NCBI GenBank assembly: GCA_965205505.1
Contig: CBDBHB010000009.1
Location: forward strand, 2,432,001 to 2,496,000
Length of the DNA: 64,000 bases
Direction: 5' to 3'
Origin: Acidobacteriota bacterium
GTDB taxonomy: Bacteria > Acidobacteriota > UBA890 > WLXD01
Made by a program: the position numbers and the translations under genes. Under the pieces are notes generated by a model. The model was not told the DNA's origin, did not search any database, and saw only the letters and a program-made list of their open reading frames with translations. Below, one piece after another: positions 31,311 to 41,346 of this stretch (its first letter is position 1; every line of letters begins with the position of its first letter).

Positions 31311-32321
31311 ATGGCGGACCTTCCCGTGCTTCAAGGTGAACCTGAGGGGTGCGCTCCGGGATCTCTGACGCGCCGCGCAAAGCCTGACTGGCTGAGAGTT
31401 CGCGCACCCGGCGGCGAGCGTTACACCTTCATCAAAAAGACGCTTCGCGACCGCGGCCTCTTCACGGTTTGCGAGGAGGCACGCTGCCCGAACGTCGGCG
31501 AGTGTTGGTCGGGCGGTACGGCCACCTTCATGCTGCTCGGGGGGATTTGCACACGTGGCTGCCGCTTCTGCGCGGTGACCACCGGTAACCCTGGTGGCCG
31601 CGTGGATGGCCAGGAGCCTCGCAAGCTCGCCGAGTCGGTAGCGTTGCTCAAGTTTCGCTATGTCGTGTTGACCATGGTCGATCGCGACGATCTCAGCGAC
31701 GGTGGGGCAGGCCACGTTGCTGCCTGTATCGAGCAGTTGAAGCGTCGCCAACCGGAATTGATCCTCGAAGCACTTGTCGGTGACTTCAACGGCGACGTCG
31801 AGGCCGTCGACACCCTGTGCGATACTGGTTTGGAGGTCTTCGCGCACAACCTCGAGACGGTTGAGGAGATGCAACGCACGGTGCGTGATGCCCGGTGTGG
31901 TTACGACAAATCGCTAGCCATTCTCGAACACGCCAAGCGCCATCCGCGGCAGCTATTCACCAAGTCGTCGCTGATGCTCGGCCTGGGCGAAAGCGATGCG
32001 CAGCTGCGTCGGTCGATGCAGGACCTCCGCTCTGTGGGCGTTGATTTCCTGACCCTCGGCCAGTACCTGCAGCCTACGTCGAAGCACCTTGACGTCGTTG
32101 AGTGGGTGACGCCGGAGCGCTTCGCACAGTTACGGCAGCTCGGCGAGCGACTCGGCTTCGCCTATGTGGCGTCGGGCCCGCTGGTACGCAGCTCTTATCG
32201 GGCTGGCGAGTTCTTCGTCGCCAATCTGGTCGAAACGCACCGTGTCGCTGCGTCGGCAACTATCCGCACCACGTCCGCGATTCGCGCTTCCTCGGGGGAG
32301 GGGGCATGGGCGAATTGCTGA
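31311..32321 (+). CDS. lipA: Lipoyl synthase
   Basis: CEEARCPNVGEC, CTRGCRFC, GQYLQP, LVRSSY. Confidence 0.96.
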   Translation: MADLPVLQGEPEGCAPGSLTRRAKPDWLRVRAPGGERYTFIKKTLRDRGLFTVCEEARCPNVGECWSGGTATFMLLGGICTRGCRFCAVTTGNPGGRVDGQEPRKLAESVALLKFRYVVLTMVDRDDLSDGGAGHVAACIEQLKRRQPELILEALVGDFNGDVEAVDTLCDTGLEVFAHNLETVEEMQRTVRDARCGYDKSLAILEHAKRHPRQLFTKSSLMLGLGESDAQLRRSMQDLRSVGVDFLTLGQYLQPTSKHLDVVEWVTPERFAQLRQLGERLGFAYVASGPLVRSSYRAGEFFVANLVETHRVAASATIRTTSAIRASSGEGAWANC

Positions 32322-33283
32322 CCGTCCTCGCCGACGACGTCGAAGCGATCGAGCGCAACGTCGGCGACCTGTCGGATGCCGACCTGACGGCCCTGTACGA
32401 GTCACTGGTCGTGACGCGGGTCGTCGATGAACGGTGCGCCCGTCTACAGCAGTCAGGGCGAATCGGGTTTTGGGCGCCGTCGGGAGCAAGCGCAGCGGTA
32501 TCGGCGGGGGCCGCGAGGGCCTTCGAAGACGGCGATTGGCTATATCCGTCCTATCGTGATGTGGGAGCGTTTCTGGTGCGCGGCGGAAGCATCGAGCAGC
32601 TGTTCGCGCAGGTGCTCGCGTCGCGGGACGACCTGGCGCGTGGGCGCCAGTTGCCCGGACACGCGACGCTGCCGGCGGGGCGCTTCGTATCGGTTTCGGG
32701 GCCGCTGGCGACACAAATTCAACACGCTGTGGGAACCGCGCTGGCCATGAAGCTGCGACATGACCCCCACACCGTTCTCGCCCTGTTCGGAGCTGCAGCC
32801 ACCGACCAGGCTTCCTTTCAGATAGGCCTCTCAACTGCCGAGCGACATGCTGCCCCCGTGGTCTTCGTGTGTCGTTGCCCGAGCACCTCGCTGGCGCCCC
32901 TCGCGATGGCGCACGGCGTGAAACCGGTGAGCGTCGATGGCACCGACATGTTGGCTGTGTACACGGCGGCACGAAGCGCCCGAGAAGCCGCGTTGGCTGG
33001 TGCCGGACCGACGCTGATCGAGGCAGTTGTGCCGGCTGGCACGGCGACGCTGAAGCCGGCGGCCAGACTGCGCCCTTATCTCGAACACCGCGGCGTCTGG
33101 GACGCCGGCCGAGAGGACGAGTTCAGTCGCCGCTGCGAGGAGCGAGGGGAGGCCGCCATCGCCTCGGCGGAGAGCGTTGGGCCACCGACAGCCGACACGA
33201 TGTTCGACGATGTATGGGCGGAGCGACCCTGGATGCTGCAAGAGCAGTCGCGCAAGCTACGTCGCCTGAAGGACGAATCCTAG
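32306..33283 (+). CDS. 2-oxoacid dehydrogenase E1-alpha homologue with degenerate ThDP site
   Basis: GRIGF, PSYRD, GRQLPGH, TQIQHAVG, VDGTDMLAVY, GPTLIEA and MFDDVWAE.PW.L.EQ identify the family. The GDG...NN motif and His loop are absent. Confidence 0.88.
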   Translation: MGELLTVLADDVEAIERNVGDLSDADLTALYESLVVTRVVDERCARLQQSGRIGFWAPSGASAAVSAGAARAFEDGDWLYPSYRDVGAFLVRGGSIEQLFAQVLASRDDLARGRQLPGHATLPAGRFVSVSGPLATQIQHAVGTALAMKLRHDPHTVLALFGAAATDQASFQIGLSTAERHAAPVVFVCRCPSTSLAPLAMAHGVKPVSVDGTDMLAVYTAARSAREAALAGAGPTLIEAVVPAGTATLKPAARLRPYLEHRGVWDAGREDEFSRRCEERGEAAIASAESVGPPTADTMFDDVWAERPWMLQEQSRKLRRLKDES

Positions 33284-33293
33284 CGAGACGAAG

Positions 33294-34265
33294 ATGCCCG
33301 ATCTCAACATGGCGCAAGCGATCAATCGGACGCTGAGCGTCGAGATGCGCCGCGACGACTCGATCGTGCTGTTAGGTGAGGATGTCGGGGCACTCGGCGG
33401 CCTGTTCAGTACCACTGAAGGGTTGCTCGACGATTTCGGCGAGCGGCGCGTTATCGACGCTCCCACCGGGGAAGGTGGTGTGATCGGCACCGCCGTGGGC
33501 ATGGCGCTCTACGGGCTCCGTCCGGTAACCGAGATTCAGTTCGCCGATTTTGTCTGGCCTGGCTTCGAGCACATCGTGTCGGAGATGTCCAGGATCCGAT
33601 ATCGCTCCGGAGGTCAATACGCTTGTCCCCTCGTCTTGCGCCTTCCTTACGGCGGTGGTGTCGGTGGCGGGATGTACCAATCGCAGAGCCCAGAAGCGTA
33701 CTTCTGCCATACGCCCGGGCTCGTCGTGGCAGCACCATCGGATCCGACGGACGCCGCTGGCATGCTCCGTGCGGCGCTGCGCGGAGATGACCCGGTCGTG
33801 TTCTTGGAGCCCAAGAGCCTCTATCAGGATTGCCGAGCCAGCGTCGACGACGAGCACCTCGTGCCGCTCGGCGAGGCTCGAGTTCGGCGGCCGGGTACTG
33901 ATGTTTCGGTGTTCGCATACGGGTCGATGGTGCCAGTAGCCCTGGCGGCGGCCGACGCCGCCGCCGGGTCGGGCATTCAAACCGACGTCGTCGATCTACG
34001 TACCCTGCTTCCGCTCGACATCGCCACCGTTCTGAGCTCGATTGCCAAGACCGGGCGGGCGGTGATTGTGGCCGAGTCGCCAACCTACTGCGGCTTTGCC
34101 GCCGAGCTCTCGGCGACGCTGTCGGAGCGCGCCCTGTTGCATCTGGAGGCGCCGGTCGAGCGCGTCGCCGGCTTCGACGTACCTTTCCCTCACGTTCACG
34201 AGAACGATTACTTGCCGAGCGAGCGACGGGTTGTCGCCGCCATCGAGCGAGTAGCAAACTTCTGA
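33294..34265 (+). CDS. 2-oxoacid dehydrogenase E1-beta (branched-chain-like)
   Basis: LGEDVG, EIQFADF, RYRSGG, PYGGG, DPVVFLEPK, DLRTLLPLD. The usual HSQS reads QSQS. Confidence 0.92.
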   Translation: MPDLNMAQAINRTLSVEMRRDDSIVLLGEDVGALGGLFSTTEGLLDDFGERRVIDAPTGEGGVIGTAVGMALYGLRPVTEIQFADFVWPGFEHIVSEMSRIRYRSGGQYACPLVLRLPYGGGVGGGMYQSQSPEAYFCHTPGLVVAAPSDPTDAAGMLRAALRGDDPVVFLEPKSLYQDCRASVDDEHLVPLGEARVRRPGTDVSVFAYGSMVPVALAAADAAAGSGIQTDVVDLRTLLPLDIATVLSSIAKTGRAVIVAESPTYCGFAAELSATLSERALLHLEAPVERVAGFDVPFPHVHENDYLPSERRVVAAIERVANF

Positions 34266-34270
34266 GGCCC

Positions 34271-35674
34271 ATGGCAAGCGAGATCAAGCTACCGGAGATC
34301 GGCGAGGGGACGGCCGAGGGCGAGATCATCAAGTGGCTCGTCACGGAGGGCCAAGCCGTGGAGGAGGACACGCCGCTCGTCGAGGTCATGACCGACAAGG
34401 CCACAGTGGAGATCCCGGCGCCATTCTCGGGCACCGTGTTCGAGCTACGCGCCAAGGAAGGCGAAGTCGTCGACGTTGGTGCGGTGATCTTGCTTATCGA
34501 CAGGGGCGAGCAGGCTGACAGCAGCAACCCGAGCGACGCTCGGGAGGTCGGTGTAGCTTCGCAGCCCCATGACGATGCTGACCCTGTAGTGCCGATCGCG
34601 GCAGAGGAGGTCGCCGCCGACCCGGTGGCGGCGGCGCAGGCGATGGCACGCGCGGAGCTCGACTCGGAAGCTGAGGAGACGGCCATTTGGGAGGTTCCCC
34701 GGGCCGCGTCCGGCGCCACGCCCACGACCCCGGCCACCCGCCGCCTGGCTCGGCAGCTCGGCGTCGATCTGCAAGAGATACAAGGGACCGGCAAGGGTGG
34801 GCGAGTTACCAAGGCGGATCTCTTGGGTGGCGCCGATCGAGCCGCGCCAACGGAAGACTCGCCAGCGATTCCCGGTGCGATCGCCGAAGCCGCACCGGTC
34901 GCCGTCAGGGCGGTCGATGCGGCGCCGATGGTCGCCAGCAACGCTCCTCGGCTGACGCCGGTCTCCGCCGGTTCACTCGAAGAGCGCATTCCGCTGCGCG
35001 GGCTTCGGCGGCGGATTGCTGAGCGCCTGGTGGAGGCGAAGCGTCTTGTCCCGCACTTCACATACGTCGAGGAGTGCGACATGACCGAGATCGTAGCGTT
35101 GCGTCGCGAGGCCAAGGAGATGGCCGCTGCTCAAGGGCTGCGGGTTACCTACCTGCCCTTCTTCATCAAGGCGTTGATCGAGGCGTGCCGTCGCCATCCG
35201 ATCCTCAATTCGTCGCTCGACGACGAGAGCGGTGAGATCGTGCTGAAGCGCTACTACAACGTTGGCATCGCTACCGACACGGAACGCGGTCTGATGGTGC
35301 CAGTGGTGAAGAATGCCGACCAGCTGAGCATCTTCGAGTTGGCACAAGAGATCGCACGTCTTTCCACGGATGCGCGCGCCGGGCGAAGCGCCGCGGATGA
35401 TCTGCAGGGCGGGACCATCACGGTCACGAGTACCGGTAGCATCGGTGGACTCCTTGCCACGCCGATCATCAACCACCCCGAGGTGGCAATTCTGGGCGTG
35501 GTCGCTATTCGCAAGCGCCCGGTGGTGCGTGGCGACGAGACCGTGATCCGCGACATGATGAACCTTTCGCTTTCTCTGGACCATCGCGTCGTCGACGGTG
35601 CTCCGGCAGCGCAGTTCATGCGTGATCTAGTGGCGTTGCTCGAGGATCCCAAGCTGCAGCTGCTCGTGACCTGA
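34271..35674 (+). CDS. Dihydrolipoamide acyltransferase E2
   Basis: Lipoyl domain EVMTDKA, PSBD (TPATRRLAR...GTGKGGRVTKAD), catalytic DHRVVDG. Confidence 0.95.
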   Translation: MASEIKLPEIGEGTAEGEIIKWLVTEGQAVEEDTPLVEVMTDKATVEIPAPFSGTVFELRAKEGEVVDVGAVILLIDRGEQADSSNPSDAREVGVASQPHDDADPVVPIAAEEVAADPVAAAQAMARAELDSEAEETAIWEVPRAASGATPTTPATRRLARQLGVDLQEIQGTGKGGRVTKADLLGGADRAAPTEDSPAIPGAIAEAAPVAVRAVDAAPMVASNAPRLTPVSAGSLEERIPLRGLRRRIAERLVEAKRLVPHFTYVEECDMTEIVALRREAKEMAAAQGLRVTYLPFFIKALIEACRRHPILNSSLDDESGEIVLKRYYNVGIATDTERGLMVPVVKNADQLSIFELAQEIARLSTDARAGRSAADDLQGGTITVTSTGSIGGLLATPIINHPEVAILGVVAIRKRPVVRGDETVIRDMMNLSLSLDHRVVDGAPAAQFMRDLVALLEDPKLQLLVT

Positions 35675-35682
35675 GCCTGACC

Positions 35683-37083
35683 ATGAGCGTCGACGTTCAA
35701 GTAGGGGTCGCTGTCATCGGGGCAGGTCCGGGCGGCTATGTGGCGGCAATACGCGCTGCGCAGCTAGGGCAGCGGGTCGCTGTGATCGAGAGGGAATTCG
35801 TCGGCGGCACTTGCCTCAATGTTGGGTGTATCCCGTCAAAGGCGCTGCTCGATGCCTCGCACTTGTTCAGCCAGATCAACCGGGCGTCGGTGTTCGGGAT
35901 ACAGGTCGAAGGCGCCAGCGTCGATTTCGCCGCCATGCAGCGACACAAGGCCAAGGTAGTCAAGGCGTTGACTACCGGCGTGCGCGGACTGCTCAAGCGG
36001 CAAGGGGTCGAGCGCCTGATGGGGACGGCGCGCTTCAAAGCACCGGGCGTGCTTGGCGTGGAGTCAGCGGACGGGACTGGCGTGACCGTCCGTGCGGATA
36101 ACGTCATTGTCGCCACCGGGTCCGTCGAGGCAGAGTTGCCCGGGGTTCCATTCGACGACGCCGTCGTGATCTCGTCGCGCGGCGCACTCGGTCTCGAGAT
36201 GGTGCCCGATCGCCTGGTCGTCGTAGGTGCGGGCTATATCGGACTGGAGATCGGGAGCGTGTACTCACGACTCGGCGCTGAGGTCGTCGTGCTGGAAATG
36301 AGGGATCGTGTCCTGCCGGAGATGGACGCCGAGGTAGCCGCGGCGGCCTACACGCTTCTCCGGCAGCAAGGGCTCGACATCCGCCTCGGTGCGAGGGTTG
36401 CTGCGGTCCAGGTCGCGGGCGATTCTGCCCGGGTACGCTACAGCGTCGAGGACAACGAGGCGACCGTCGAGGCGGACCGCGTGTTGGTCTCGATCGGTCG
36501 GCGGCCCGCCACCGACGGGCTCGGGCTCGACGCGATTGGGCTCGAAACCGACGATCGTGGTTTCATCATCGTCGACCACGGCATGCGCACCGGGGTGCCT
36601 GGCGTCTATGCGATCGGCGACGTTGTCGCTACGCCGATGCTGGCGCACGTGGCCATGGACGAGGGTGTTGTCGCGGCGGAATGTATCGCTGGCCAAGTCG
36701 CCGCGATGGAGTACGACGCGATCCCTGCGGTCGTGTTCACGCATCCAGAGCTCGCCTCGGTGGGGCTCCAGGAACAGGAGGCCGAGCTGCGCGGACACCG
36801 GCTCAAGGTAGGCCGCTTCCCGTTCCGCGGCAACGGCAGAGCACGGGCGCGCGACGACATGGAAGGCTGGGTGAAGGTGATCGCCGACGCCGACACCGAC
36901 GCGATCCTGGGAGTTCACTGTGTGGGCCCGGAGGCCGGGCATCTGATTCATGAGGCAGTCGTGGCAATGGGGTACGGCGGCTGTGCTGAAGACCTCGCGC
37001 TAACCGTCCACGCGCACCCGACGCTGTCAGAGGCGTTCAAGGAAGCCGCCCTGGCGGTTGACGGTCGCTCGCTGCACATTTGA
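35683..37083 (+). CDS. lpdA: Dihydrolipoamide dehydrogenase E3
   Basis: GAGPGGY, GGTCLNVGCIPSK, GAGYIGLE, HAHPTLSE. Confidence 0.96.
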   Translation: MSVDVQVGVAVIGAGPGGYVAAIRAAQLGQRVAVIEREFVGGTCLNVGCIPSKALLDASHLFSQINRASVFGIQVEGASVDFAAMQRHKAKVVKALTTGVRGLLKRQGVERLMGTARFKAPGVLGVESADGTGVTVRADNVIVATGSVEAELPGVPFDDAVVISSRGALGLEMVPDRLVVVGAGYIGLEIGSVYSRLGAEVVVLEMRDRVLPEMDAEVAAAAYTLLRQQGLDIRLGARVAAVQVAGDSARVRYSVEDNEATVEADRVLVSIGRRPATDGLGLDAIGLETDDRGFIIVDHGMRTGVPGVYAIGDVVATPMLAHVAMDEGVVAAECIAGQVAAMEYDAIPAVVFTHPELASVGLQEQEAELRGHRLKVGRFPFRGNGRARARDDMEGWVKVIADADTDAILGVHCVGPEAGHLIHEAVVAMGYGGCAEDLALTVHAHPTLSEAFKEAALAVDGRSLHI

Positions 37084-40068: not shown

Positions 40069-41346
40069 TCAGGCTCCCATGAGCCTCTTGGTGAGCCACT
40101 TTTCGGCATCGAGGGCGGCGCGGCAGCCATATCCCGCGGCGGTGATCGCCTGCCGGTAGTGGTGGTCGTGGACATCGCCCGCCACGAACACGCCGTCGAT
40201 CGCGGTGCTGGGCAGCGGCCGCTCGTCGTCGGCTACGTAGCCCAGCTCATCGAGCCGGATCGGCCAGTCGACCAGCACTCCGGTGTTGGGGTCGTGACCG
40301 ATGGCGATAAAGCATCCGTCGACCTGCACGTTGGCACCCTCGCCGGTTTGATTGTTGATCACTTGCACGCCGGTGAGTCCTGTTTCCGACGTGCCGACGA
40401 ACTCCTCGACCTCGGTGTTCCACAGGACATCGATCTGCTCGTGCTCCAGAACGCGTCGAGCCATGATGGGGCTGGCGCGGAGCTCGTCGCGTCGGTGTAG
40501 AAGCGTCACCGAGGAAGCGAACTTGGTGAGGAACAGGGCCTCTTCCATGGCGGAGTCACCGCCGCCGACGATCGCTACGGGTCGACCGCGGAAGAAGGCT
40601 GCATCGCACGTCGCGCAGGTGGAGACGCCGTAGCCGCGTAGCTCCATCTCACCGGGTACCCCCAGGGCCTTTGGCGACGCGCCCGTGGCAATGATCAGCG
40701 CATCGCAAGTGTGCTCGGCGCTGCCCTCCAGGACGACCTTGAAAGGGTGCTCACCTAGCTGAAGGCTGTCGACGTGACCAAACAACAGCTCGGCGCCGAA
40801 TCGCTCCGCCTGCGCCCGCATCCCGTCGATGAGCTCGGGCCCTTGGATACCGTCTGGGAACCCTGGGAAGTTCTCGACATCCGTCGTCGTGTATAGCTGT
40901 CCACCTAGCTCGCGACCGGTGATCACCAGCGGCGCCAAGTTGGCACGGGCGCTATAGATGGCCGCTGTCAGGCCGGCGCAGCCGGAGCCGATGATGATCA
41001 GCTCACGATGGTTCTCAGCCACCTCGCCCTCCGGGGCCCTGTCACGGCTATCGGCGTCCACAATCCCGGCACCGTTGTGGCCGTCGCGGTCGGCGTTGAG
41101 CAGCGGGTCCAGTTCGCCGCGAGTCTCGAGCGCGGCGAGCTCGTCGAACCCACCGATGTGCAGATCGTCGATGAATATCTGTGGCGCGGTGGCACGGCCG
41201 TTGGAGCGCTCGATCATCTCCGCGAATCGAGCACGGTCGGTCGAGACGTCGATCTCGTCCCATTCCACGCCCTTCGCCGCGAGCAGGTTCTTGGCCCAGC
41301 TGCAGTACGAGCAGAACGACTTGGTGTAGACGACAACTTGAGGCAT
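40069..41346 (-). CDS. trxB: Glutaredoxin-3 / thioredoxin reductase fusion
   Basis: N-terminal Grx (CSYC, TAPQIFI, IGGFD), acidic linker, then TrxR (IGSGCAG, VENFPG, CATCD, GGGDSA, HRRDELR, YRQAITAAG.GC.AA). Confidence 0.92.
   Translation of the reverse strand: MPQVVVYTKSFCSYCSWAKNLLAAKGVEWDEIDVSTDRARFAEMIERSNGRATAPQIFIDDLHIGGFDELAALETRGELDPLLNADRDGHNGAGIVDADSRDRAPEGEVAENHRELIIIGSGCAGLTAAIYSARANLAPLVITGRELGGQLYTTTDVENFPGFPDGIQGPELIDGMRAQAERFGAELLFGHVDSLQLGEHPFKVVLEGSAEHTCDALIIATGASPKALGVPGEMELRGYGVSTCATCDAAFFRGRPVAIVGGGDSAMEEALFLTKFASSVTLLHRRDELRASPIMARRVLEHEQIDVLWNTEVEEFVGTSETGLTGVQVINNQTGEGANVQVDGCFIAIGHDPNTGVLVDWPIRLDELGYVADDERPLPSTAIDGVFVAGDVHDHHYRQAITAAGYGCRAALDAEKWLTKRLMGA

Follow-up and report, generated by a model that had tools for sequence, protein, structure and literature searches.

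An apparently disarmed E1 kept under purifying selection in a 2-oxoacid dehydrogenase operon of Acidobacteriota

Introduction

What is the E1 component of a 2-oxoacid dehydrogenase complex for when its cofactor site is missing? The question is raised by a five-gene operon, lipA-E1alpha-E1beta-E2-E3, found in a stretch of 64,000 nucleotides from an Acidobacteriota bacterium (assembly GCA_965205505.1, contig CBDBHB010000009.1, positions 2,432,001 to 2,496,000), which is called the window here and to which position numbers refer. In 2-oxoacid dehydrogenase complexes, E1 is always the entry enzyme that depends on thiamine diphosphate (ThDP). An earlier note on this DNA had claimed that both E1 subunits of the window (32306-34265; E1alpha* and E1beta* below) have lost active-site residues while keeping their scaffold, beside an intact E2, E3 and lipoyl synthase (LipA), and that selection for a non-catalytic role explains this better than random decay. 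The results of our analysis show that, as read from its sequence, this E1 is catalytically disarmed and that purifying selection has maintained it in an acidobacterial order.

Results

The E1 genes and their operon

The five genes are close-packed on the + strand (31311-37083), with 16 nt shared by the 3' end of lipA and the start of the E1alpha gene, and all five are named by Pfam and NCBIfam. The features of the operon, with the evidence for each, are the following.

31311..32321, + strand: lipA, lipoyl synthase, intact (TIGR00510, 379.5 bits against a cut-off of 310.25; both Cys clusters in the translation)
32306..33283, + strand: E1alpha*, 325 aa, without the ThDP/Mg motif and without both active-site loops (Pfam, TIGR03181, alignment to 1um9_A, AlphaFold2 (AF2) model)
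32786..32809, + strand: degenerate GDG site of E1alpha*, FGAAATDQ where FGDGATSE is expected (alignment to 1um9_A and to canonical copies)
32861..32890, + strand: first in-frame deletion junction, VFVCRC/PSTS, with the NN..AIS loop missing (13-residue gap against 1um9_A; gap against all canonical copies)
33020..33058, + strand: second in-frame deletion junction, EAVVPAGTATLKP, with the YR..H.S.DD loop missing (split match to 1um9_A; ~30-column gap in the alignment with canonical copies)
33294..34265, + strand: E1beta*, 323 aa, full length, with His replaced by Gln at the catalytic position (Pfam, match to 1um9_B)
33678..33680, + strand: CAA codon for Gln129 (QSQS), at the catalytic His position of E1beta (His in 5/5 solved chains shown)
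34271..35674, + strand: E2, 467 aa, with lipoyl domain, linker, peripheral subunit-binding domain (PSBD, residues 152-185) and acyltransferase domain, intact (Pfam)
34619..34705, + strand: stretch of the E2 linker conserved specifically in the clade (residues ~117-145), with WEVP after a predicted helix, immediately N-terminal to the PSBD (alignments, AF2)
35683..37083, + strand: E3, dihydrolipoyl dehydrogenase, intact (TIGR01350, 552.4 bits against a cut-off of 408.8)

The E1alpha* frame is uninterrupted and matches Pfam E1_dh (PF00676) at 142.7 bits (cut-off 22) over profile positions 3-223 of 300, with ~30% identity to the alpha chains of solved heterotetrameric E1s; its score against the NCBIfam equivalog TIGR03181 is 205.8, under the cut-off of 411.35. 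Alignment to the Thermus E1alpha chain 1um9_A paired fgDGatse with fgAAatdq, a change of GDG to GAA, and showed both loop deletions. The match to this chain splits at residues 242/250 of E1alpha* and 267/295 of the chain, where the second (phosphorylation/His) loop has lost ~20 residues. His291-alpha and His146-beta' of the human branched-chain 2-oxoacid dehydrogenase (BCKDH) are named in the titles of PDB entries as residues of reductive acylation, and the position of His291-alpha falls inside this second deletion. Re-reading of the DNA gave the strings of the earlier note at the positions that it had listed (FGAAATDQ at 32786, VFVCRCP at 32861, the second junction at 33020), together with ASAA at residue 61 (32486).

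Comparison of 18 canonical E1alpha sequences with 18 degenerate copies showed that, out of 111 columns conserved in the former, the latter keep 56, hold an intermediate state in 24 and have lost 31. Losses fall in the GDG motif, the Ser that follows it, both loops (NN..AIS and the second one) and the Ser of the SSP motif. The residues found in their place vary within the degenerate clade (consensus fractions of 0.2-0.7), and therefore no new conserved site has been fixed in E1alpha*.

E1beta* also has an uninterrupted frame, with matches to Transket_pyr (PF02779, 145.7 bits), to Transketolase_C (PF02780, 119.5 bits) and, over residues 4-321, to the chain 1um9_B (357.6 bits); it scored below the cut-off of NCBIfam NF006667 (279.7 against 321). 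Its Gln129 corresponds by offset to His128 of 1w85_B, and the replacement of HSQS by QSQS was thus described correctly in the earlier note. At this position 11/11 genomes of the window's family have Gln, and the 10 sister-family sequences that were examined have His. Only five columns set the E1beta of the window's family apart, of which two, His129 to Gln (10/10) and Leu58, beside Glu60, belong to the active site. The C-terminal aromatic residue of E1beta, to which we ascribe a role in PSBD binding, was kept in 18 of 19 orthologues.

With the Asp and Gly of GDG, the NN loop and the His loop gone from E1alpha* and the E1beta* His changed to Gln, the two subunits are predicted to be unable to anchor ThDP.

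The partners of this E1 are intact, as had been proposed. E2 matches Biotin_lipoyl, E3_binding and 2-oxoacid_dh of Pfam and carries the lipoyl-Lys motif TDKA at residue 41 and HRVVDG at residue 438; E3 carries CLNVGC at residue 44 and HPTLSE at residue 445; and the Cys clusters of LipA are CEEARCPNVGEC and CTRGCRFC. One metatranscriptome contig of 163 nt matched 33228-33390 exactly, across the stop of E1alpha* and the start of E1beta*, which hints at co-transcription of the two genes but may reflect carry-over of DNA; the run that holds it covers only 4/30 bins and gives no reading of the expression level.

Selection and distribution in the order

Nei-Gojobori ratios of non-synonymous to synonymous substitution rates (dN/dS) were calculated for six pairs within the genus (G000, the window's genome, with G002, G003 and G004). 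They were 0.07-0.12 for E1alpha*, 0.08-0.11 for E1beta, 0.08-0.12 for lipA, 0.08-0.13 for E3 and 0.17-0.23 for E2.

The operon was then followed through 26 genomes of the window's order, all that the genome collection has for it, which fall into two families. The order lipA-alpha1-beta-E2-E3, where alpha1 stands for the gene in the position of E1alpha*, is conserved in these genomes. Among the 20 alpha1 genes that could be read across the motifs (11 genera), 19 are degenerate and only that of G014 is intact. Both loops are deleted in the window's family; in the sister family they are partly kept but degenerate, with a Glu at the Asp position in 6/9 copies and one Asn in 4/9. In both families the frames of the 19 degenerate genes have stayed open; their identity is 41-54%, and synonymous divergence has reached saturation (dS > 1.3). 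Shared defects, low dN/dS and losses concentrated in the motifs and loops thus bear out the earlier proposal of a scaffold retained by selection, and the finding of intact relatives with dN/dS near 1, which would have pointed to simple decay, was not made. Residues for cofactor binding and, by prediction, for catalysis have been lost from a gene that is still under purifying selection, which would make the protein a pseudoenzyme, an inactive homologue that selection keeps.

The 120 best database matches to E1alpha* comprised 22 degenerate forms of the clade, 96 canonical sequences and two others. One of these, P0041 (349 aa, on a 3.7-kb contig of a metagenome-assembled genome (MAG) labelled Haliangium), does not belong to the clade; GEEA and GEG are present in it, NR stands for NN and APS for AIS, and the second loop is missing. 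An E1 may have been disarmed independently here. The other, P0046 (323 aa), has an odd C-terminal half and has probably been truncated or frameshifted.

A maximum-likelihood tree of 37 E1alpha sequences, from which no rows were dropped, placed all degenerate copies in one clade (Shimodaira-Hasegawa-like approximate likelihood-ratio test, 99), with the intact alpha1 of G014 as its sister (support 100) and a second E1alpha gene, alpha2, as a separate and older paralogue. The order alpha1-beta-E2-alpha2 with all motifs intact was found in Planctomycetota MAGs and in the acidobacterial genomes G030 and G014, and the full order lipA-alpha1-beta-E2-alpha2-E3 in Planctomycetota MAGs and G014. Within the order, alpha2 survives only in G014, G018 and G021, and elsewhere E3 directly follows E2. 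These results show that the ancestral operon was lipA-alpha1-beta-E2-alpha2-E3 with every motif intact, that alpha2 was lost later, in most genera, and that the E1beta His was lost in the window's family. The simplest reading is a single disarming of alpha1, at the base of the acidobacterial clade, with erosion continuing afterwards.

G021 also has alpha1-beta-E2-alpha2, with lipA upstream and E3 downstream, and its alpha1 is dead. The signature of alpha2 is FPALR/WSGLR, against FPSYR, and there are two E1alpha paralogues for one E1beta; such a pair with a single E1beta and a single E2 implies two alternative E1 enzymes that share beta and E2.

Other E1 enzymes in the genome

The earlier note had called for a search for a second, intact E1, and one is present. 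In the window's genome, which is 96% complete, PF00676 gave two matches only: E1alpha* and a fused E1alpha-beta protein of 741 aa (G000:C9:126158-128380), encoded beside pntAB with no adjacent E2. The motifs of the fused protein are intact (GDG, DNDIAIS, GHSS, PLNE and YHSMS). Contig 8 of the same genome holds a complete AceE-E2-Lpd operon, in which AceE has its own E2 and Lpd. A second canonical E1alpha was not found with PF00676, nor a SucA-type E1 with PF00676 and PF02779, although at 96% completeness their absence is unproven. The E2 and E3 of the window are the only such pair that is without an active E1 of its own.

Orthologues of the fused protein (at least 58% identity) occur in 10/10 other genomes of the family and 13/15 of the sister family; none was found in G014 (90% complete), where alpha1 is intact, nor in G022 (83% complete). 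G015 and G016 keep the fused E1 despite the loss of alpha1 and beta. The combination of lipA-E2-E3 with a fused E1 in these two genomes, together with a stop codon in the E1beta gene of their relative G020 (see Discussion), indicates that an E1 from another locus can serve E2 and E3, and that the dead E1 is an accessory which reduced genomes can do without. G015 and G016 also carry a second fused paralogue, of 772-791 aa.

In the window's family, G005 and G007 have an additional E1alpha-E1beta-E2 operon, the E1alpha and E2 of which are 27-36% identical to those of the window; dead and additional E1 sets therefore coexist there.

Structure models and the E2 linker

The AF2 model of E1alpha*, made with 18 orthologues, had a mean predicted local distance difference test score (pLDDT) of 80.9 and a predicted template-modelling score of 0.82, with a weak segment at residues 112-132. 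Its best structural match with Foldseek was the apo form of Thermus E1alpha (1um9_A; template-modelling score 0.87), in which only 331/367 residues are listed and the loops that ThDP orders are unresolved. By this likeness, the model of E1alpha* resembles a permanently apo E1alpha.

Two copies of E1beta* were modelled with the PSBD of E2 (residues 146-192). The score was 0.58 (0.58, 0.62 and 0.53 in the three runs) against 0.09 for the best of three controls, which was graded as weak support; the runs shared at least 86% of contacts, and the pLDDT of the partner was at least 75. The mark used was reached by 58/80 solved complexes and 2/110 mismatches, and scores of 0.60 or less that passed it came from 7/80 solved complexes and from both passing mismatches. 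As the homologous complex is already solved (1w85), the score shows likeness to it rather than binding.

The PSBD is preceded by the clade-specific linker segment. In the AF2 model, the helix at residues 118-132 had low confidence (pLDDT of 35-47 for linker residues 81-150) and is a hint only. Neither the E2 proteins examined from Planctomycetota, G030 and G028 nor the additional canonical E2 of G005 and G007 have this helix segment. The WE motif that follows it (WE[AV]P; WEIA in G005) was present in 18/18 examined genomes with a dead alpha1 and beta and no alpha2, and absent from the 5/5 others, which are G014, G018 and G021, with alpha2, and G015 and G016, without E1. Relative to G020, it is precisely the helix/WE segment that is deleted in G015 and G016. 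This co-variation amounts to about two evolutionary events and is therefore a lead only.

The Arg in the 'GRV' turn of the PSBD, which we take to contact E1 and E3 in Geobacillus, is Arg in the window, Leu (GGLV) in several genera of the sister family and Met in G010 and G006.

Surroundings of the operon

The operon is surrounded by thyA/folA, an ABC transporter, a RecD2-type helicase and a flavoprotein reductase with a fused glutaredoxin, none of which has a bearing on the dead E1. The last of these is a glutaredoxin domain fused to a pyridine-nucleotide-disulphide oxidoreductase, encoded on the - strand at 40069-41346, 3 kb past E3.

Discussion

The loss of cofactor-binding and catalytic residues under strong selection suggests that the E1 of the window is probably a non-catalytic part of an otherwise intact complex. 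E1alpha* and E1beta* would keep the E1 fold and probably assemble as alpha2beta2; this dead E1 would probably dock on the PSBD of the neighbouring E2 and be a structural or regulatory occupant of the complex, and the decarboxylating E1 for E2 and E3 would be supplied in trans by the fused E1alpha-beta. We give a probability of roughly 60% to this reading, a selected E1 pseudoenzyme docking on E2 with catalysis supplied by the fused E1. Among the roles proposed in the earlier note, that of a partner for an active E1 encoded elsewhere drew the most support, from the intact fused E1 here and in 23/25 other genomes of the order, and the partnership itself is what we infer from them. The role of a decoy or regulator on the PSBD is weakly supported by the docking model. 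A lipoyl-state sensor and a ThDP-independent way of loading E2 received no support.

Several results weigh against this reading. The use of the window's E2 by the fused E1 is deduced from gene content, no E2 was found beside the fused E1 in G000, G011, G012 and G015, and G022 has a dead alpha1 and no fused E1 that could be found (83% complete). The docking on E2 comes from one model, with weak support, of a textbook pair. The inactivity of the proteins is a prediction from their residues, and the disarming is not total: Glu60 of E1beta, presumably the Glu that activates the aminopyrimidine of ThDP, is invariant in 19/19 orthologues, and E1alpha* keeps PSYR and GRQ, motifs that in canonical E1 form part of the lining of the cofactor site. 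At least one lineage can dispense with the dead E1, since both E1 genes are cleanly gone from G015 and G016 (2.5 Mb, 86-88% complete), which leaves lipA-E2-E3, and in G020, their closest relative, an in-frame TAG splits E1beta (VVAAP*TPADAV; L039:2823-2825), a true nonsense mutation unless it is an error of sequencing. When genera are compared, E1alpha* evolves faster than the other genes (dN of 0.44-0.48 against 0.20-0.33 for its neighbours; dN/dS of 0.25-0.30), yet it is still constrained.

Three other explanations have to be weighed. The genome is a metagenome assembly of nine contigs, and the deletions could be assembly or binning errors of this one MAG. We regard this explanation as refuted and its probability as close to nil. 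Eighteen public runs, from eight or more studies, contain 50% or more of the words sampled from 32306-34265; contigs of two runs from different studies span this stretch whole with one or two substitutions and no indel, and a third run covers 32692-33829 with no differences. One of these three runs may be the source of the window itself. Orthologues from separate assemblies hold the same deletions as well. The doubt about read support for the deletions that the earlier note had left is thereby removed.

Slow decay, in which both E1 genes are relics that persist for a time, for instance owing to their place in an operon with needed genes, is improbable in our estimation. It would account for the clean removal of both genes in G015 and G016, the premature TAG of G020, the very long alpha1 branch of G005 (1.86 in the E1alpha tree), the graded erosion of the loops, which the sister family still keeps in part and the window's family has wholly deleted, and the elevated dN of E1alpha* at deep divergence. 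It is hard to reconcile with 19 degenerate frames that stayed open across two families at saturated synonymous divergence, with within-genus dN/dS equal to that of essential neighbours, and with the 56/111 canonical columns that were kept. Less probable still is a protein that remains an enzyme without the canonical ThDP site, holding the cofactor through beta and new contacts or loading E2 by other chemistry. The invariant Glu60, the PSYR and GRQ motifs, the fully intact E2, E3 and LipA, and the Glu (6/9) or single Asn (4/9) of degenerate sister-family copies would suit such an enzyme; the diphosphate/Mg anchor and both loops, with the alpha His, are absent, the variable replacements fixed no new site, and a transketolase without 38 cofactor-site residues is reported to be inactive (PMC3485151).

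The selected pseudoenzyme that docks on E2 is thus the reading that we prefer. A more specific form of it, in which the dead E1 is an architectural subunit that binds the helix and WE[AV]P of the E2 linker and, through this contact, organises or controls how the fused E1alpha-beta and E3 reach the E2 core, as an E1-derived bacterial counterpart of the E3-binding protein (E3BP), is speculative and we think it unlikely, if less so than the two enzymatic and relic explanations above.

We know of no earlier E1-derived pseudo-subunit, and an E1 predicted to lack cofactor binding in both subunits and conserved in two families would be the first known to us. It offers a natural experiment on the non-catalytic roles of E1, namely PSBD occupancy, stoichiometry relative to E3 and stability of the core, and the stepwise series from intact through dead to deleted E1 is open to reconstitution and comparison. 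The dead E1 genes are now annotated as TPP (thiamine pyrophosphate)-dependent E1 alpha subunits or as hypothetical proteins, names that would therefore mislead metabolic models of Acidobacteriota and that call for an annotation warning.

Comparison with the alpha2beta2 E1 of BCKDH and pyruvate dehydrogenase (PDH) complexes (Thermus 1um9, human 1dtw, Geobacillus 1w85) shows the same two-gene layout, fold and domain families, and the same partners, an E2 with a PSBD and an E3; the dead E1 differs from them in having neither GDG nor NN, neither of the loops that ThDP orders, and neither the alpha nor the beta catalytic His. In eukaryotic PDH complexes, E3BP (protein X) is an inactive paralogue of a complex component that is kept as a structural subunit. 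Like the dead E1, it is a catalytically inactive paralogue within the same complex; unlike the dead E1, it is derived from E2 and its binding is demonstrated, where the role of the dead E1 is the one proposed above. In a literature search over titles and abstract openings, with subscription journals outside its scope, one paper is on the E3-binding protein (10.1101/2020.08.13.232140), and nothing was seen on inactive E1 subunits, on 2-oxoacid dehydrogenase complexes of Acidobacteriota or on fused E1alpha-beta.

TKTL1 resembles E1alpha* as a homologue of a ThDP enzyme with an in-frame deletion in the cofactor site, and it differs in belonging to another branch of the ThDP superfamily, in being eukaryotic and in standing outside any multienzyme complex. 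The transketolase deletion cited above was made as a model of TKTL1, the activity of which is disputed, since PMC6334435 is reported to say the opposite. The fused E1alpha-beta proteins (~700-800 aa; Acidobacteriota and other phyla) belong to the same superfamily as the dead E1, from which they are set apart as single polypeptides with intact motifs encoded away from E2, and one of them is the probable active E1 here.

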